The position numbers and the translations under genes were made by a program. Below, piece by piece: positions 14,178 through 45,431 of a DNA stretch of 55,815 bases. This DNA comes from a virus (lineage: Duplodnaviria > Caudoviricetes): the IMG/VR virus record IMGVR_UViG_3300032291_001093, positions 1 through 55,815 of that record; one strand, written 5' to 3'. Below the pieces are notes generated by a model. The model did no database searches and was not told the DNA's origin. It worked only from the letters and a program-made list of their open reading frames with translations. Within the stretch, counting starts at the first letter, position 1. Each line of letters begins with the position of its first letter.

Positions 14178-15956
14178 TTACAGGCTAGCGGCGCTACGGC
14201 AGATCACTTTGACCTTGAGAGCGGTAGACAAGTACACCTTGATGGTGTTGTTGTCTTGCTCTTCAACGGACACGATGTCGTTGTAGTACTTGCCATTGGC
14301 ACGCTCAACTTGCACGCCCACGTCCACAAAACCGTTGTTCAGGTTGTGAGCGATGGTGTGCACGGTAGCGGCGGCAGATGCTTGGAATGTAAAGACTGTG
14401 TTGTTGTAGTCAGTACGGATCGCTGTGTCTGCGGCTGCACGAGCAGTAGCTTCGGCGGTTACAGCAGCTTGACGGTCAGAGATCTCTGTGGAGATGCGGC
14501 CATCCAAAGCGGTTTCAGCAGCTTGAGCGCGGCTGATTTCGCTGTTCAAGTCGCTACGCAGGGAAGCGTCAGCGGCAGAACGGGCAGATGCTTCGGCTGT
14601 ATCGGCAGCAGCGCGGGCTGTGGCTTCAGCAGTAACGGCAGCCTGACGGTCAGCAATCTCAGTGTTTAAGTCAGCACGAAGACCAGCCTCAACACCTTCT
14701 GCGCGAGTCTTTTCTGTAGCAATCGCAGTGGCGTTTGTTTGGTCGCCAGTTTGACGTGCAGAGATTTCTGTGTTCAGGTCAGAACGCAAAGACGAATCAG
14801 CAGCGATACGTGCAGACTCTTCAGCGGTAACAGCGGCTGCGCGAGCGGCAGACTCAGCAGTCAGATCGGAACGCAGACCAGCTTCTACGCCTTCGGCACG
14901 AGTTTTCTCAGTGGCGATTGCAGTAGTGTTGGCTTGCTCAGCAGCTTGTGCACGAGCAATTTCAGCGGTCAAATCGGTGCGGAGGCCAGCCTCAACGCCT
15001 TGAGCACGAGTTTCCTCGGCAGTGATGGCGGCTGCATTGGTTGCATCACCAGCGGCGCGAGCAGTAGCTTCAGCAGAGTCAGCGGCGGTACGTGCAGCAG
15101 TTTCAGCAGTCAGGTCTGTACGCAAGCCAGCTTCCACGCCAGTAGCGCGGGTAACTTCAGTAGCCAGGTCGGTAGTCAGGGTCTGCTCTGCGCCTTGAGC
15201 ACGAGCGATTTCGCTAGTCAGGCCAGAGTTAACTTCGTTGATAGCACCAACCAAGTCAGTCTTGTAGCTGGTGTTCAAGTTGCTCAGGTTACCGATCTTG
15301 CCGCTGGATTGTGCTTCCAAGCTGGTAATACGGCCATCCAAAGCTGTGTCAGCAGCGGCACGGGTAGTGGCTTCTGCGCTAACGGCGGCTTGGCGATCAG
15401 AAACTTCAGTAGTGATACGGCCAGACAGAGCGGCTTCAGCGGCAGCGGCACGGGTCTCTTCAGCGTCAACTTCAGCTTGAGTTGCGGCAATCATGCCTTC
15501 CAACACGTTAATGATGTTGGGGTCGTTTTCCAGAGCTTGAGCTAATTCGGTGATGGTGTCCAAAACCGAAGGAGGGATACCGCCGAGCAGGTCAGCTTTA
15601 GTCTGGTCAATTTTAGCGTCCAGAGCAGCTTCAGCAGCAGTAGCGCGTGTAATCTCAGCAGAGAGGTTAGAAGCGATAGTGCCTTCAGCAGACTGAGCAC
15701 GGGTTGTTTCAGCAGCGATAGATGCTTGAACAGCGGCCAACTCAGTAGCAGCAGACTCAGCGTCCTTGATGGTGCGAATCACCACGGCGCCAGAGCTGTT
15801 CAAAGAAGAATAGCGAACTACTTTGTCAGTAGAGTTGAACCATACGCGACCAGCAGCAACGGGGCTAGGGTCAGCAGATAAGATTTCGAGGTTGAGGTTT
15901 TCTACGTAGGCATTAGCCGCAAGGGTAATACCATGAAATACTGGGAAATTAGCCAT
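14178..15956 (-). CDS. Long Ala/Glu/Thr-rich coiled-coil fibre protein
   Basis: Many AExTRAxxAE/AEATARAAAD repeats; LDTITELAQALENDPN motif as in P2/Mu-type fibres; C-terminal IAHNL domain. Confidence 0.75.
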   Translation of the reverse strand: MANFPVFHGITLAANAYVENLNLEILSADPSPVAAGRVWFNSTDKVVRYSSLNSSGAVVIRTIKDAESAATELAAVQASIAAETTRAQSAEGTIASNLSAEITRATAAEAALDAKIDQTKADLLGGIPPSVLDTITELAQALENDPNIINVLEGMIAATQAEVDAEETRAAAAEAALSGRITTEVSDRQAAVSAEATTRAAADTALDGRITSLEAQSSGKIGNLSNLNTSYKTDLVGAINEVNSGLTSEIARAQGAEQTLTTDLATEVTRATGVEAGLRTDLTAETAARTAADSAEATARAAGDATNAAAITAEETRAQGVEAGLRTDLTAEIARAQAAEQANTTAIATEKTRAEGVEAGLRSDLTAESAARAAAVTAEESARIAADSSLRSDLNTEISARQTGDQTNATAIATEKTRAEGVEAGLRADLNTEIADRQAAVTAEATARAAADTAEASARSAADASLRSDLNSEISRAQAAETALDGRISTEISDRQAAVTAEATARAAADTAIRTDYNNTVFTFQASAAATVHTIAHNLNNGFVDVGVQVERANGKYYNDIVSVEEQDNNTIKVYLSTALKVKVICRSAASL

Positions 15957-26823: not shown

Positions 26824-26979
26824 TTACTTTTTCTTAGCTTGGCTGAGTCCTCCTTGTGGTTTTGAGCCGTTGGATTGGCCTTTAGGTTGCATGCTGCTGC
26901 CATCAAGCTTCTCGCCCATTGCGATACGCTTATGTTGTGGCACGTTAATGCTCTTTTGCTCTTGATCACTGGTAGCCAT
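26824..26979 (-). CDS. 51-aa basic protein (not in ORF track)
   Basis: MATSDQEQKSINVPQHKRIAMG...AKKK; AGGAGG RBS. Confidence 0.7.
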   Translation of the reverse strand: MATSDQEQKSINVPQHKRIAMGEKLDGSSMQPKGQSNGSKPQGGLSQAKKK

Positions 26980-29467
26980 AGGGGCCTCCTTGTTTGCTAG
27001 TTAAAGTAAGTGCAGTTTTGGTCTGCTCGTTTTGCAACTTGACGGCATCTCTGGTCAAGCGTGCAGATTCGATACGCTCTTTGGTTTCGTTGTCGCCTTG
27101 AGCAATAGCCATCTTGAGTTGCAATTCTTCTTGGGCAAGCGCCATGTCGTCTTGATGCTTTTGCATTTCGAGCTGGATATCTGCTTGATCTTTTTGTGCA
27201 CGGCGCTGGGTTTCCGCCATGCTGGTCTCCATCAGTACTTGAGCCTCTGGAGTCATTGGGGGCTTGGGTTGGAACTGCTGCATCTGCTGCATCATCTGTT
27301 GGATGATCGGCATGATCTGCTGGAAGGTCTGTACGCTGTCTTGGTTGACGTGCTGGCCAGCCAAGGCAAACAGCTTATCAATCTTGGGAGTAACATCTTC
27401 CACGTCGTAGTCTGTAACAGGCTTGCCAAGGGACTTGTTCACGTAGCCATTCATGCGGTTGAGATACCACAAGGTCAAGTGTTGCTTGATGTGCTCCATC
27501 ACTTGGGGGATGAATGCGGGGGCAATCATGGGGTTTGCGCCAAGGATTGGGTCTTTGGCGAAGTCCAAGTGGCTTTGGATATGGGCAAGGTGATCTTGCT
27601 CAATATAAGCAAAAGCAGGTTGTCCAATCGACATGGCCACGTTCTCATTAGCAGAATCCCGCTTCTCAGGATCAGGAACGCCCCGCATCAACTCATTGAC
27701 GCCTGGCACCTTAATCTGCTTCAAGAATCTTTCCACCACAGACTTGCGGTCAAACAGGTCGGGGTGCTTCTCCATAACCTGCATGACGGCCTGTATTTGG
27801 GCCATACGCTGCGTTTCAGAGAAGATGTGGGGGTCAGACACAGGAACTACGTCTGTGTTACGCATGAAGTCTTCACGGGTGATTTCTAGGTCTTCAACCA
27901 CGTCACCCTTCTGCATGTCGTCCAAGTACCAGCGGTTCAGCCTAGCAAGAACCTTGAGCACACGGCTTTGGCTTGCGTGGAGTCGGGCATGGATGGCGGA
28001 GAACACAGCAGCACCCTGCTCAATCAGGGCTTGGGTAGTTCCTACGGGAGCTTGTGAATTTACGTCAGCAATCTTCTCTTCCGCAGTAGTAATCACTCCC
28101 TTGGCGGCTTTTTCCAAGAATCCCATCAATTGGAACAATACGGGGCTAGGCGCATTAAAGGGCAGCGGCATGGCAATCTTGCGGACGTCATCCACACCGG
28201 GCGCACCTTCAATCTCCACCACTTGGGTGACCTCAACTTGTTGGCTCTGCCCGCTGATCTTGCCGCCTTTGAGCTTTAGCATGGTTGGGGCGTTGTTGAT
28301 ATGGGCTGAGTCTAATAAAGCCCTCAGAGAGCCTGTAAGGGCTGCTGCCAAGCCTCCAATAAGGTGGGGCAATCCAACAGCATACGCTCCACGCCATGGA
28401 ATGAATTTGAACTCAATCAGCCAATCCAGCTTGGACATGGTGTCATCACCATCTTCCCAGTTGCGGTACAGGCCAATGACTTTGCTCTCGATGTCGTCAA
28501 TCATCAAGATGTAGGGCGCAGACTCTCCCTTGGTGTAGGAGTCGTCTTCCAGCTCAAGCCATGTATATACGTGGTATATACGTCTTACGCCATCTTCATT
28601 CTCGTCAATCTTCTTACCTTCAATCTTGTCGGTAGCTTTCTCAGAGCGGGTTTGTTCCGGCTCCATAGTGGCGCGGATATAACTTGTGTCACGATATAGA
28701 CCTGAGCTGATGCGGCGTTTAAATTCCCAATCCGTGATGTCCATCACCTCGGTGACGCGCTGGGCTGTGTAGAAGTTTGCAGCGGAGAATGGGAGCAAGA
28801 TGTTGTCGATAGGAACAAACTCGGCGCAGGGACGCTTCTTGTTCTCGTCATACCAGATCTTCATGAATTGAGAGCCACCCAATGGCAGTTGGGTGAGCAG
28901 TTGCTCTTGCTCGTCACGGAACTCTTCAATCTGCTCGGTAAGTTGCCAGTTCATGAAGTCACGCTTACGCTCGGCAACCTCAGTTTTTTCCTTGTCCACG
29001 TCACCCAGAATCTTGGTGCGGGTTGGGCCATCTGGTGGGAACAGCTCTTTAATAGCGCGAGCAGCAAAGTCTACGCAAGCTTCAGCCATTACGGGGTGGA
29101 CTACCTTAGAAGCACCCATGAAGTTAGCACCGCCTGGTGCGTCATTGCCCATACCTGTGCGGCGGATGCCTTCTTCGTATTGCTTGTCGCGCTGTGAGCG
29201 GGCTTCTTTATCTTTGTCGATTAAGCCAAGATAGCGCAGGGAGATCTTGTCCAGCTCCCAAGGATCTATGTCTTCAGCAAGGTTTGAGTAGAAGTCTTCG
29301 TCCTCATCAGGGCCTTTGAAGTTATCCATAGTGACCACAGCAGAGCCATCAGGCAGTTCTTCTATGCTGGATTCTTCTAGGTCTAGATCCACCTCCATAC
29401 CTTGATCTTCAGGTGCGGGTGGTTCATTTCGACCAAACTCTGGGTCGATGGGGAATTCTGTTGCCAT
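26966..29467 (-). CDS. Portal protein
   Basis: 833 aa; VVHPVMAEA...KELFPPDGP, LPLGGSQFMK, APVGTTQALIEQG...SAIHARLH; between TerL and scaffold. Confidence 0.88.
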   Translation of the reverse strand: MATEFPIDPEFGRNEPPAPEDQGMEVDLDLEESSIEELPDGSAVVTMDNFKGPDEDEDFYSNLAEDIDPWELDKISLRYLGLIDKDKEARSQRDKQYEEGIRRTGMGNDAPGGANFMGASKVVHPVMAEACVDFAARAIKELFPPDGPTRTKILGDVDKEKTEVAERKRDFMNWQLTEQIEEFRDEQEQLLTQLPLGGSQFMKIWYDENKKRPCAEFVPIDNILLPFSAANFYTAQRVTEVMDITDWEFKRRISSGLYRDTSYIRATMEPEQTRSEKATDKIEGKKIDENEDGVRRIYHVYTWLELEDDSYTKGESAPYILMIDDIESKVIGLYRNWEDGDDTMSKLDWLIEFKFIPWRGAYAVGLPHLIGGLAAALTGSLRALLDSAHINNAPTMLKLKGGKISGQSQQVEVTQVVEIEGAPGVDDVRKIAMPLPFNAPSPVLFQLMGFLEKAAKGVITTAEEKIADVNSQAPVGTTQALIEQGAAVFSAIHARLHASQSRVLKVLARLNRWYLDDMQKGDVVEDLEITREDFMRNTDVVPVSDPHIFSETQRMAQIQAVMQVMEKHPDLFDRKSVVERFLKQIKVPGVNELMRGVPDPEKRDSANENVAMSIGQPAFAYIEQDHLAHIQSHLDFAKDPILGANPMIAPAFIPQVMEHIKQHLTLWYLNRMNGYVNKSLGKPVTDYDVEDVTPKIDKLFALAGQHVNQDSVQTFQQIMPIIQQMMQQMQQFQPKPPMTPEAQVLMETSMAETQRRAQKDQADIQLEMQKHQDDMALAQEELQLKMAIAQGDNETKERIESARLTRDAVKLQNEQTKTALTLTSKQGGPYGYQ

Positions 29468-42837: not shown

Positions 42838-43262
42838 TCAAGTTCCTCTCGAACTAATATGTCCACCCCAGGTACTGCGGAATAGAGCTTTTTAACATTA
42901 AGAAATATAACTTGCACATCATCTTTGTAAACAACATTATTCATGCTATCCAAAATTTGCTTGGCCACATTATCCACATCTGGCTTTTTCGTATGTTTTT
43001 CCTTGCCAGACAAACAGTCCTTAGTCCGTTGTTTGGAGTAAGACTTGGGCACAGAGAACCGAACGTAAAGAAACACGCTTAGAGGCGTTTCTAGAGGCTC
43101 TGACTCCCCCATAGCTCTAGTGGCAGCATCTTTGATTTGCTGTTCATAAGACTTTGTTTTGGCATCGGTGTAGGTCTGCACAAAGTTTTTGGTACGGCGG
43201 AATCTAGGTCTGCCCTTCCCCTTTGGCTCGCCCTCTACCGTGAAGCATACTTGCATGGTCAT
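42834..43262 (-). CDS. rusA: RusA-family Holliday junction resolvase
   Basis: GEPKGKGRPR, KKPDVDNVAK.ILDSMN.VVYKDD.QV. Confidence 0.92.
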   Translation of the reverse strand: MTMQVCFTVEGEPKGKGRPRFRRTKNFVQTYTDAKTKSYEQQIKDAATRAMGESEPLETPLSVFLYVRFSVPKSYSKQRTKDCLSGKEKHTKKPDVDNVAKQILDSMNNVVYKDDVQVIFLNVKKLYSAVPGVDILVREELE

Positions 43263-43537
43263 CTGAATTTATTCATTCTGTTGCGGAGATCTTGGATTGC
43301 CTTCTCCCCGCGGGTTTTACGAATCTTTTCGGACATATCGTCCCACCACTCTCTAGCACCCCCAAAGCCTCTTTCATCTTTCTTTTTCTTAAAGCGCTGT
43401 ATCCACTCTCTAGCTTCGCAGTCTCTCATGTGCTCAATAGTTTCAGGGCTGATTGTGACATTTGATGGTGCGAGTCTTTCCGTAGGTACAGCTTTTTCTC
43501 TTTTTTGAGGCTTCATTTTTTGCTTAAAATGTTCCAA
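43259..43537 (-). CDS. Hypothetical protein
   Basis: HMRDCEAREW...IRKTRG. Confidence 0.65.
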   Translation of the reverse strand: MEHFKQKMKPQKREKAVPTERLAPSNVTISPETIEHMRDCEAREWIQRFKKKKDERGFGGAREWWDDMSEKIRKTRGEKAIQDLRNRMNKFR

Positions 43538-44454
43538 GCTGTTGCGGCGCAGAGTGGTACTTGTCCATTTCCAATGGCTTTAAGTCTGTCCATCCTAGCG
43601 GCCACCCCATCAGCCACTCTACCCACGTTGGGTTCAGCTTCCCACTGGTCGGATGTACCGATTGACTCAGCATAATTTGCTTTCCTATTTCTACTCTGCG
43701 CTGAATTGATGGGTTGCTCATGTTTCCCCTGTCTCTGTTGTCTGATGCTTGCGGCGTGGGCCAGATGTTCTTCTTCGCCATCATTGCAAGTGTTGGGCGC
43801 TGATTTGAGCTGCCCACTGATGTATTGAATCTTCCCGTTCCAGCATCTATCGATACAAGAGTCGGAAATGTTTGTCGCTTTTTTAGCGCCCTCCTGCTGT
43901 TGCTCCCACCGTCTAATCCTGTTGTGTTGGGTGTGTGAAAGCTGTCCACGCCATTTGGCGACAATCCAGATTCTGTCCCTCTGATGGTTTGCTCCAACGT
44001 CCGCTGCTCCCAGCACTCCCCATTTCGCATCAAACCCCATTGAGGCCAAGTCTCCGAGAACTCGTCCAAGTCCCCTAGAAGTGAGCATTGGTGAGTTTTC
44101 CACGAAGACGAATCTGGGTCGTACTTCGTGAATGATGCGCGCCATTTCTCCCCACATTCCGCTTCGCTCTCCGTCAATTCCTGCGCCTTTTCCTGCTGCG
44201 CTGATGTCCTGGCACGGGAATCCTCCAGATACAACGTCAACAATTCCTCTCCAAGGCTTTCCGTCAAAGGTTTGAACGTCATCCCAAATCGGGAAAGGCG
44301 GGAGAAATCCGTCATTTTGTCTTGCGGCAAGTACGCTTGCTGGATAGGGTTCCCACTCAACTGCGCAGACGGTTCTCCATCCAAGCAGGTGTCCCCCAAG
44401 TATTCCTCCACCAGCGCCCGCGAAAAGAGCCAACTCATTTAAATTCTCCTTCAT
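43513..44454 (-). CDS. C5 cytosine DNA methyltransferase, alpha chain (motifs I-VIII and X)
   Basis: LFAGAGG (I), GGFPCQDIS (IV), VENS (VI), HQRDRIWI (VIII), RLKAIGNGQVP (X); no motif IX in this frame. Confidence 0.93.
   Translation of the reverse strand: MKENLNELALFAGAGGGILGGHLLGWRTVCAVEWEPYPASVLAARQNDGFLPPFPIWDDVQTFDGKPWRGIVDVVSGGFPCQDISAAGKGAGIDGERSGMWGEMARIIHEVRPRFVFVENSPMLTSRGLGRVLGDLASMGFDAKWGVLGAADVGANHQRDRIWIVAKWRGQLSHTQHNRIRRWEQQQEGAKKATNISDSCIDRCWNGKIQYISGQLKSAPNTCNDGEEEHLAHAASIRQQRQGKHEQPINSAQSRNRKANYAESIGTSDQWEAEPNVGRVADGVAARMDRLKAIGNGQVPLCAATAWNILSKK
43524..44438 (-). CDS. Overlapping +1-frame methyltransferase beta chain (TRD-like repeats plus motif IX)
   Basis: 304 open codons; SD AAGGAG 7 nt before the ATG; HTP/PTL/PTP repeats; LNPTWVEWLMGWPLGWT. 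Confidence 0.85.
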   Translation of the reverse strand: MSWLFSRALVEEYLGDTCLDGEPSAQLSGNPIQQAYLPQDKMTDFSRLSRFGMTFKPLTESLGEELLTLYLEDSRARTSAQQEKAQELTESEAECGEKWRASFTKYDPDSSSWKTHQCSLLGDLDEFSETWPQWGLMRNGECWEQRTLEQTIRGTESGLSPNGVDSFHTPNTTGLDGGSNSRRALKKRQTFPTLVSIDAGTGRFNTSVGSSNQRPTLAMMAKKNIWPTPQASDNRDRGNMSNPSIQRRVEIGKQIMLSQSVHPTSGKLNPTWVEWLMGWPLGWTDLKPLEMDKYHSAPQQLGTF

Positions 44455-45431
44455 GATGCCAAATGTGGATAGTTAATAAAAAACTGCGCCTCAGAGCCGT
44501 ACTCAGCAATGAATTGCCCAGCATCTCGATGCCTCCATAGGCTTACGATAGGTTCTCCGTCTGCTATGCCCTCGTAGTTCCTCTGCTTTCTGCACAGCAA
44601 GTAGCAGTCAGGTTCAGTCTGTCGGGTGCTCATAACGCCTTTGGCTCGGTAATCATCTTCCTTAGCCTTATTCCGCCAAACCATAAATAGGTTGTCCACT
44701 TGGTCGGTGATGGAGCCACTACCCTTGGTGTCATGCTTGTCGGGCATGTCGGTCTCTTTGGCGGGCTTTTTAAGATGATGCACAAGGTGGATGTGGATAT
44801 TGCAGTCTTTAGCCAATGCACAAAGTTGGTCAACAAATGCTTTCTGTCCGTTGTAGTCATCTTCATTCTTGACACATTTCATAAGAGAGTCAATAAACAC
44901 ATGAGTTATTTTAAGCTCTTGTGCACAATATTTAACCATGCCCAATACGGTTTCGGGGCGTGCGGTTCCTGTTTGGTCGTACAGCCACATCTTTTGCTTA
45001 GTCCAATAGCCAAAATCATCATAAAGCTCTTCTAGGGCAGTAATGCCTTCGTCAGTCTGATATTCGGGCGCATTGGGGTTTGTCCCCGAAAACATCCGGA
45101 TCAGCCTCTGAATGGTCACTAGGGGCTTCATCTCAAACGATGCTATGCAGACACGTTCGCCTTGCCCCAAGAGGGATAGAGCAATCTGGCTCGTCACGTC
45201 AGTCTTGCCGTGGCCATTCTGCCCAGCCCAAACCGTCACCTCAGACGGGCGGAAGTCGAAGCTCTCATTGGTCTTTGGCCAAGGCAGGAAAGTTTTGGGT
45301 TCGGATAACTTCTGTCGAAGTCTAGCCTTAGCATCATCCACAAAATCTGCTGCTGGCTTGACCTTTGTTTGAGCTTCTGTCTCTTGTAGGTATGCTTCAA
45401 AGTCAATGCTGTCATCTAAAAATTCAGGCAC
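44451..45431 (-). CDS. SF4 (DnaB/Twinkle-like) replicative helicase without a primase domain
   Basis: WAGQNGHGKT, SFEM, FIDSL, HLVHH, KGSGSITD, KQR. Confidence 0.88.
   Translation of the reverse strand: MPEFLDDSIDFEAYLQETEAQTKVKPAADFVDDAKARLRQKLSEPKTFLPWPKTNESFDFRPSEVTVWAGQNGHGKTDVTSQIALSLLGQGERVCIASFEMKPLVTIQRLIRMFSGTNPNAPEYQTDEGITALEELYDDFGYWTKQKMWLYDQTGTARPETVLGMVKYCAQELKITHVFIDSLMKCVKNEDDYNGQKAFVDQLCALAKDCNIHIHLVHHLKKPAKETDMPDKHDTKGSGSITDQVDNLFMVWRNKAKEDDYRAKGVMSTRQTEPDCYLLCRKQRNYEGIADGEPIVSLWRHRDAGQFIAEYGSEAQFFINYPHLAS

Follow-up and report, generated by a model that had tools for sequence, protein, structure and literature searches.

Two almost completely overlapping frames of a phage gene probably encode the two chains of one DNA (cytosine-5) methyltransferase

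Our analysis of the virus record IMGVR_UViG_3300032291_001093 (hereafter the window; 55,815 bases, a complete virus record with direct terminal repeats) indicated that one of its genes specifies a two-chain DNA (cytosine-5) methyltransferase of the M.EcoHK31I kind, in a variant in which the two coding frames overlap almost totally, and we assign this reading a probability of about 0.8. Both open reading frames (ORFs) lie on the minus strand: alpha (43513..44454; 313 amino acids [aa]) and, in the +1 frame of alpha, beta (43524..44438; 304 aa, 915 nucleotides [nt]), which starts 16 nt downstream of the alpha start and occupies 97% of alpha's span. This nested pair had been proposed in a preliminary description made from the sequence alone, and it was present with the lengths given there; motifs I, IV, VI, VIII, and X (RLKAIGNGQVP) were likewise found in alpha, and a motif IX-like segment, LNPTWVEWLMGWPLGWT, in the +1 frame. 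We infer that both chains are made, bind each other, and are both needed for methylation. The two-frame layout is family-wide, occurs in hundreds of phages and prophages, and has largely been missed by annotation.

Chance was ruled out as the source of the second open frame by control ORFs of the window and by synonymous shuffling. The 29 other window ORFs of at least 200 aa contained +1-frame stops at a density of 4.89 per 100 codons, with no open +1 run exceeding 0.33 of its ORF, compared with 0.97 in alpha. Synonymous shuffling of the window alpha predicted 4.1 +1-frame stops, with 0 of 200 shuffles being stop-free. The same two open frames are carried by four deposited phages (of Acinetobacter, Salmonella, Vibrio, and Mycobacterium). 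A wider homolog set was obtained with an alpha alignment, which yielded 80 viral and 80 genomic loci, the latter coming from many phyla according to their record titles; 163 of 164 loci were analyzed (L073 had no start candidate), and after removal of five cut by contig ends, 159 complete loci, the window included, remained. A single open +1 stretch spanned at least 95% of alpha in 148 of these and at least 90% in 156, and in none of the 159 did it span less than 50%, in agreement with the expectation that both frames stay open in homologs. The +2 frame had 5-33 stops per gene (mean, 16.3), and synonymous shuffling of alpha in the homologous loci predicted 4.57 stops per gene in the +1 frame, the stop-free fraction of the shuffles averaging 0.011. 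A filter of at least 95% coverage and an alpha of 225-375 aa kept 143 of the 159 loci, of which 107 were non-redundant (<75% identity). Across these 107 loci, the region of alpha 8-166 had 0 +1-frame stops versus 2.94 expected (median P(0), 0.02), and, reciprocally, the segment from motif VIII to motif IX had 0 alpha-frame stops versus 3.16 per locus expected under beta-synonymous shuffling (median P(0), 0.023). An open frame was a criterion for entering the sets behind the regional, codon-identity, and periodicity figures, which therefore apply to most loci and not to every one.

The start signals of the two frames are closely spaced and conserved. In 118 of the 159 loci, the beta ATG lay 4 nt after the alpha start (ATG in 60, GTG in 40, and TTG in 18), and the family start motif was NTGAATGAG, the TGA of which is the stop of the upstream gene where that gene is annotated. 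The Asn codon that supplies the AT of the beta ATG was AAT in 132 of 132 loci, whereas AAT accounted for 544 of the 1406 other Asn codons in the same genes. In 91 of 134 loci, the 20 nt preceding the beta ATG contained GGAG, GAGG, or AGGA, at a modal spacing of 8 nt (mostly 7-9 nt); a Shine-Dalgarno-like site 7-9 nt from the beta ATG stands 3-5 nt from the alpha start in these relatives. Together with loci L007 and L043, the window forms a small variant in which the alpha start is 12-15 nt further upstream and alpha's own codons form the Shine-Dalgarno-like site. In the window, this site is the AAGGAG of alpha codons 2-3 (44446..44451, minus strand), 7 nt before the beta ATG, as had been noted before; a beta-frame TAA directly precedes this ATG, which is made by the alpha Asn-Glu codons AAT GAG (44436..44441, minus strand). 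The alpha ATG (44454-44452) shares bases with the TGA (44453-44451) of a DnaB-like helicase ORF (44451..45431) in the form of ATGA (44451..44454, minus strand); this overlap, too, had been reported correctly, and it may serve as the initiation route of alpha. The motif, the 4-nt spacing, and the invariant AAT bear out the suggestion that each frame has an initiation route of its own.

The frame under constraint switches along the gene, from alpha over motifs I-VIII, to beta over the target-recognition region and the motif IX-like segment, and back to alpha over motif X. Alignments of alpha (A3) and beta (A4) comprised the window and 88 other loci; of the 103 non-redundant loci that were eligible, 15 had been excluded for doubtful start calls. 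Nucleotide differences fell mostly at alpha codon position 3 in alpha 21-50, 81-110, and 151-166 (share, 0.60-0.61), mostly at alpha position 1, which is beta position 3, in alpha 272-290 (0.55), and again at alpha position 3 in alpha 291-312 (0.56). The beta position 3 share in the variable region of beta was 0.59, on 8 usable pairs only, and over the stretch of beta 106-145 the alpha position 3 share fell to 0.47. This periodicity agrees with the alpha-beta-alpha order of information-bearing frames suggested previously. The pairwise identity of alpha was 0.60-0.95 per 10-residue window at residues 1-168 (43951..44454, minus strand), the catalytic domain in which alpha is the main constrained frame, and 0.09-0.20 at residues 170-270 (43645..43947, minus strand), a linker without conserved sequence that is nevertheless kept open and represents the alpha-frame reading of beta's target-recognition region. 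The alpha consensus was blank from motif VIII to 'WW..EP.VGRV', whereas the beta consensus over its variable half (beta 155-262; 43653..43976, minus strand), the putative target-recognition region with conserved WPTP-type motifs, contained two WPTP motifs and GG.LNP.WVEWLMGWPLGWTDLKPLE. From this comparison, the alpha sequence EP.VGRVA.GV..R.D is to be read as a shadow of the motif IX-like segment of beta (beta 268-284; 43587..43637, minus strand; alpha residues 273-289), and the tail of beta as a shadow of alpha's motif X.

Synonymous codon usage also singled out parts of beta. The rate of identical codons at alpha positions sharing an amino acid, calculated in 10-residue windows, showed its strongest excess at alpha 271-290 (0.87 and 0.83 versus 0.32-0.34 expected); it was also raised at alpha 1-20, 51-70, and 111-140 (0.55-0.65 versus 0.25-0.38) and at alpha 141-150 (0.50 versus 0.33-0.34), and stood near background at alpha 91-100 and 151-160 (0.38-0.40 versus 0.31-0.37). 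The constrained alpha windows correspond to beta ~1-15, 46-65, and 106-145. The last of these (44004..44123, minus strand) is a predicted hairpin module around SWKTHQCSLL ... TWPQWGLMRNG, where alpha synonymous-codon identity was 0.50-0.65, compared with 0.27-0.38 when the null preserves an open +1 frame. Since this null already forbids +1-frame stops, stop avoidance does not explain the excess, and the +1-open synonymous permutations led us to reject it as the sole cause of the synonymous constraint. The z-scores of this measure ignore relatedness, and the contrast from window to window within the same genes is the sounder evidence.

The alpha chain is a recognizable catalytic chain of a cytosine-5 (C5) methyltransferase, its motifs I-VIII being followed by a long linker and motif X. 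Motifs FAGAGGG (I), GFPCQD (IV), ENS (VI), and QRDR (VIII) identified a C5 catalytic domain, and alpha residues 9-255 matched positions 5-252 of the 324-position Pfam profile PF00145 (E 2.3e-33), so that the C-terminal part of the profile is unmatched in alpha. Matches to phrog_363 (E 5.1e-71) and, in phmmer, to M.HhaI (E 2.5e-13) were also obtained; the top Foldseek match was M.HhaI as well (2uz4_A; E 1.1e-14, 171 aligned columns), the likeness being limited to the first ~170 residues of alpha. The score against NCBIfam TIGR00675 (85.2 bits) was under the cut-off of 100.65. When alpha was modeled alone with 89 sequences in AlphaFold2 (AF2), the predicted local distance difference test (pLDDT) value was >90 at residues 1-170 and <50 at residues 198-267, a middle part that is thus predicted to be disordered, and 95 for the block 301-310, which lies in a C-terminal helix (298-312). 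Motif X (alpha 290-300; 43555..43587, minus strand), a label itself assigned by pattern, included three residues, G295, N296, and Q298, that were invariant across the 89 sequences of A3. A target-recognition domain, motif IX, and motif X did not occur together with motifs I-VIII in alpha as they would in a single-chain enzyme. Three alpha matches of 376-438 aa with 60-62% coverage (P0185, P0217, and P0221) were considered as single-chain forms and rejected, as they had the same layout with a longer linker. As a separate observation, the PADLOC model PDLC03286 ('Type II methyltransferase', 185 positions) matched alpha 8-172 end to end, and its length suggests that curated sets already include short chains holding motifs I-VIII alone.

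The N-terminal half of beta lies over alpha motifs I-VIII and is followed by the target-recognition region and the motif IX-like segment. Residues 63-287 of beta matched phrog_1008 ('DNA methyltransferase'; E 1.3e-29), and residues 258-297 matched phrog_26627 (71 positions, function unknown; E 3.5e-15). The segment LNPTWVEWLMGWPLGWT was the most constrained of beta and touched the motif X helix in the co-fold described below, and hidden Markov model and PDB sequence matches to it were absent. The model of beta alone contained a helix at residues 60-77 and short strands at 104-115 and 135-143, and matches in the ESM Atlas, taken as a lead only, were confined to 'hypothetical protein' clusters, mostly viral.

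Co-folding of the full-length chains supports alpha-beta binding, as far as a predicted complex can. The interaction prediction score from aligned errors (ipSAE) was 0.89, 0.89, and 0.88, versus 0.00 for the best of three controls, so that the in silico check proposed in the preliminary description came out in favor of a complex; the mark applied had been attained by 58 of the 80 solved complexes and by 2 of the 110 mismatched pairs, and each chain was supplied with an 89-row alignment. Contact agreement between runs was at least 69%, and partner pLDDT was at least 62. The contacts of lowest predicted error were those of beta 270-286 with alpha 290-301 and alpha 40-45, and a further predicted interface was formed by beta 1-9, 31-35, 44-53, 66-81, 106-113, and 130-145 against alpha 122-162. 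In the model, alpha W145 touches beta G135 (expected error, 0.6 Å), and the codons of the two residues are 14 nt apart. It may be added that around alpha 141-147 and beta 130-140 (~44019-44049), the two chains are predicted to touch through residues whose codons occupy nearly the same bases.

A distant branch shows the two-frame layout with a shorter second frame. In phages of Lacticaseibacillus, Synechococcus, and Sulfitobacter, in phage C72C1, and in Mycobacterium phage Spikelee, the +1 frame was open from 76-169 nt past the alpha start to 20-86 nt before its end. Of the 80 viral loci obtained by scanning with the alignment of these sequences, 75 were complete (free of contig-end truncation), and every one of the 75 had a +1 stretch through PCQ that took in at least 0.6 of alpha. 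The open stretch had a mean length of 243 codons (6.24 stops expected; median stop-free shuffle fraction, 0.000), and its first Met preceded PCQ by 17 codons at the median (interquartile range, 16-23). Ahead of the open stretch, the first ~50 alpha codons contained 9.8 +1-frame stops per 100 codons. The strict motif IX pattern was found in 64 of the 75 loci. A conventional single-chain close relative was not found, all 75 complete loci of this second scan being two-framed, and the scan therefore yielded no natural control group.

Two mycobacteriophages carry what looks like a divided form of the same enzyme. In Mycobacterium phages Refuge (L250:832-1834) and RedBird (L251:832-1909), the depositors annotated two overlapping 'DNA methylase' genes, the first with motifs I-VIII and then a stop, and the second in the +1 frame with an overlap of 101 nt (Refuge) or 197 nt (RedBird). 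Gene 2 begins with a stretch homologous to beta 106-145 or its end, followed by a variable region; hhalign of A4 against Refuge gene 2 gave a probability of 96.8% (E 2.8e-10) at the start region of beta 155-262. Its motif IX-like segment matched that of the window in BLASTP (E 3e-5 in RedBird), and a GNGV motif X-like segment came 22-24 residues later in the same chain. The succession of a IX-like segment and GNGV in one gene 2 chain is the best support for the motif IX label given to beta. The second genes of these mycobacteriophages were not recognized by Pfam. In many further mycobacteriophage records, the region of the alpha match likewise bears two methylase features. The split, nested, and near-total forms look like stages of one series.

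Several observations weigh against the two-chain reading. The window alpha ATG has no Shine-Dalgarno-like site upstream, so that initiation of alpha would presumably proceed by coupling to the helicase stop. The open +1 stretch covered <95% of alpha in 11 of the 159 loci; L084 has one TGA in beta, L135 a mid-gene frame change, L094, L115, and L155 one alpha stop just after motif VIII, and L156 one stop within the catalytic part of alpha (motif VII-VIII), and the second half of L152 differs. Apart from the one nonsense codon or indel, the two-frame genes of L084, L094, L115, L135, L155, and L156 are intact. The exceptional loci may be decayed copies, assembly errors in metagenome-assembled genomes, or split variants in which motif X would have to be made separately. 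Because the loci are related, z-scores and products of P values overstate their independence. Pfam returned 0 families for beta, PF00145 was found in 0 of 89 beta relatives, no NCBIfam or PADLOC model matched beta, and searches of PDB sequences gave no meaningful match, two weak ones (E 0.34 and 0.98) being set aside as chance; since none of these libraries recognizes beta, the label 'motif IX' was assigned by pattern, position, and co-fold only. The mean pLDDT of beta modeled alone was 56.6, with values <50 at residues 21-55 and 81-99. In addition, solved single-chain C5 methyltransferases exist, so that the motif IX/X part of the co-fold may pass by likeness, and as our own alignments were used, its calibration is only rough.

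Against this background, three other explanations were weighed. The low confidence of beta alone at residues 21-55 and 81-99 would fit a view in which only the C-terminal piece of beta is functional and its N-terminal half is a passenger, held open simply to let ribosomes that enter at the 5' end get to the useful part, or is bypassed by an internal Met start. Synonymous constraint near background at alpha 81-110 and 151-160 points the same way, as do the 9.8 +1-frame stops per 100 codons that make the first ~50-codon part of beta dispensable in the distant branch, and the published report on M.EcoHK31I, in which beta deletions keep some activity (PMC2836561). However, extra constraint was found at alpha 51-70 and 111-150 (0.50-0.65 versus 0.27-0.38), and the constrained segments fall within the predicted interface. 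Gene 2 of RedBird and Refuge still opens with the counterpart of beta 106-145, the open frame of the distant branch has its beginning a median of 17 codons ahead of PCQ rather than at the target-recognition region, and N-terminal deletions of M.EcoHK31I beta are reported to weaken alpha binding (PMC2836561). We consider this explanation unlikely for beta as a whole, and possible for the weakly constrained parts of its N-terminal half.

A single chain for which the ribosome shifts frame twice in a programmed manner, by +1 past motif VIII and by -1 past motif IX, leaving the second ORF as a by-product, would place the segments (I-VIII, target-recognition region, IX, X) in the order of single-chain enzymes. 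Under such a scheme, however, the first ~160 codons of beta and the alpha linker would go unread, and both are kept open in the 107 loci (0 versus 2.94 and 0 versus 3.16 stops, respectively). Moreover, a canonical X_XXY_YYZ heptamer after motif IX occurred in 1 of 88 loci, runs of at least five identical bases near the first switch were rare (A, 8; T, 3; G/C, 6 of 78 loci), alpha has no stop at the first switch to drive a prfB-type +1 shift, and all of 132 loci retain the beta ATG, which together make this explanation very improbable. That indels from assembly or sequencing, or from gene decay, have broken up one conventional methyltransferase is still harder to credit. The window is a metagenome-derived virus record, and Logan contigs of the best run lack a difference-free cover at 43922-44291; yet the layout recurs in independently sequenced isolates of Acinetobacter, Salmonella, Vibrio, Mycobacterium, Lacticaseibacillus, Synechococcus, and Sulfitobacter phages and in 148 of the 159 loci, and contigs of run X1 reproduced most of the gene without a difference from the window; the indels listed in the contigs examined were confined to compensating pairs in relatives (X4 and X15). 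The two-chain reading is accordingly the one retained here.

Contigs were examined across four metagenome or metatranscriptome runs. Run X1 matched the window with 0 differences at 43300-43588, 43608-43921, 44292-44416, and 44410-44700. In the Logan contigs of the four runs, the gene was fragmented, and the compensating indel pairs of X4 and X15 lay within 5 nt. Contig joints that skip 110-459 nt between ~43581-43645 and 43756-44080 were read as relatives with other variable regions. Summed contig depth reached hundreds to thousands at 43535-43628 and 44005-44427, compared with ~17-98 at the flanks; this depth over the conserved parts, together with the skipping contigs, indicated that the aquatic samples are rich in relatives whose variable regions differ. 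The contigs of the RNA run X15 covered only conserved parts of relatives, so that expression of the window gene is not demonstrated by them.

Despite its wide distribution, the second chain is poorly visible in databases. Of 8000 scored candidates per frame (90% identity clusters), 7998 matched beta at E ≤ 0.001 and 8000 matched alpha, which corresponds to thousands of full-length relatives of either frame among called proteins (at least 7998 and at least 8000, respectively); among the 120 beta matches listed, 95-100% of the beta length was covered. The beta relatives are named 'hypothetical protein', occasionally 'DNA (cytosine-5)-methyltransferase 1', and have no Pfam domain. For the present genome, the protein collection holds alpha (P0121, 100% identity) and not beta (best match, 83%). 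RefSeq names only alpha in E. coli, and the record of Vibrio phage 1.291.O annotates only beta, as a 'hypothetical protein'. The warning in the preliminary description that gene callers would drop one chain was thus justified, with either chain being the one lost.

The gene stands in a replication module, flanked by a primosomal-type protein and the helicase (matches to phrog_239 and phrog_19) in one direction and by a RusA-like resolvase in the other. The alpha stop overlaps the ATG of the next ORF as ATGA (43513..43516, minus strand), and stop/start overlaps at both ends of alpha chain the helicase, alpha, and this small ORF together. The next ORF was called from an upstream TTG (43259..43537; 92 aa) and had no PHROG match, and the beta TAA lies 8 nt before the ATG within the stop-overlapping ATGA of alpha. 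None of the deposited phages was close to that of the window, the methyltransferase gene excepted. Elsewhere in the window, long antisense ORFs (268-293 aa) were seen at 14739-15545 (+) within 14178-15956 (-) and at 27032-27889 (+) and 27633-28514 (+) within 26966-29467 (-); such ORFs inside large minus-strand genes may have arisen by chance.

In the mechanism that we propose, ribosomes would start at two neighboring sites, the alpha start and the +1-frame beta start 16 nt downstream, the latter making use of its own Shine-Dalgarno-like site. Alpha would supply the S-adenosylmethionine-binding and catalytic domain (motifs I-VIII), an unstructured linker of ~100 residues, and the motif X helix, while the C-terminal half of beta would supply the target-recognition region and the motif IX-like segment. 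The N-terminal parts of beta (~1-15, 46-65, and 106-145) may pack against alpha, and the two chains could then come together as a single enzyme having the customary large and small domains. A broader proposal, which we advance tentatively and with somewhat less than even confidence, is that the gene belongs to a very large, obligately two-framed clade of phage and prophage C5 methyltransferases, of which the window gene would be the most derived form with its ~900-nt overlap, and that the N-terminal half of beta is an overprinted clamp on an alpha surface encoded by nearly the same nucleotides.

The two-frame layout has practical and evolutionary consequences. Where one chain is lost or called 'hypothetical', phage gene catalogues, protein families, and methyltransferase inventories are distorted. 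Recoding, codon-optimizing, or cloning the annotated ORF alone would silently destroy the second chain, and specificity prediction would seek the target-recognition domain in the wrong protein. For studies of evolution, the family offers hundreds of independent cases of two long proteins on the same bases, with apparent split, nested, and near-total stages, and hence a test bed for the origin and persistence of overlapping genes and for the setting of subunit ratio by starts 4 nt apart. If the clade-wide two-framed reading is true, the assignment of the target-recognition domain of M.EcoHK31I to alpha would need revision, phrog_1008, phrog_26627, and thousands of 'hypothetical proteins' would turn out to represent the second methyltransferase chain, and codon-optimized synthetic copies of the gene would be inactive.

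Among known systems, the closest is M.EcoHK31I of E. coli HK31 (YGGCCR), which, in the published account (PMC2836561), consists of two polypeptides, with beta in another frame inside alpha and both needed; progressive N-terminal deletion of its beta is stated there to give progressively weaker association of the chains, and the plasmid names pET3a-M38 and pET3a-C23 would suggest a beta of about 23 kDa. The preliminary description had supposed that the same logic applies to the window, and it holds in that beta is nested in another frame within the alpha gene and motifs I-VIII and X are in alpha. It does not hold for the target-recognition region, which here is found in beta, whereas a predicted target-recognition domain is placed in the alpha of M.EcoHK31I in two papers (PMC2836561 and PMC3404938); the two enzymes are set apart in this respect by published description and not by sequence. 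The window beta also differs in spanning 97% of alpha and starting 16 nt after it (4 nt in most relatives), and the gene is an orphan within a phage replication module and not one half of a restriction-modification pair. The distant branch, with a beta of ~243 codons beginning ~17 codons before PCQ, resembles the M.EcoHK31I layout as published.

M.AquI-type enzymes are, according to PMC3404938, divided within or near the variable region into two adjacent genes, the chains of which must assemble. The two-gene form of Refuge and RedBird, with motif IX-like and motif X-like segments in the second chain, shares this division, whereas the window gene keeps motif X in the alpha frame and has its beta nested within alpha instead of following it. 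Alpha 1-170 shares the catalytic fold and motifs of the single-chain enzymes M.HhaI and M.HaeIII (PF00145), but only ~171 columns align to M.HhaI, and the small domain would come from the second chain in the window. Overprinted genes of phages and other viruses likewise encode two proteins on one DNA stretch, with mutual constraint at the shared bases; in contrast to these, the window products would be parts of one enzyme, and the ~900-nt overlap is conserved across hosts of many phyla. In the full-text literature searched, of which most subscription journals and REBASE notes lay outside the coverage, a two-frame cytosine methyltransferase appeared only for M.EcoHK31I (PMC2836561), with no family described and with nothing of relevance in PMC3711429. 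A nested two-frame methyltransferase was already known, if little noticed, and what appears to be new in the present gene and its relatives is the near-total overlap of the two frames and their adjacent starts.

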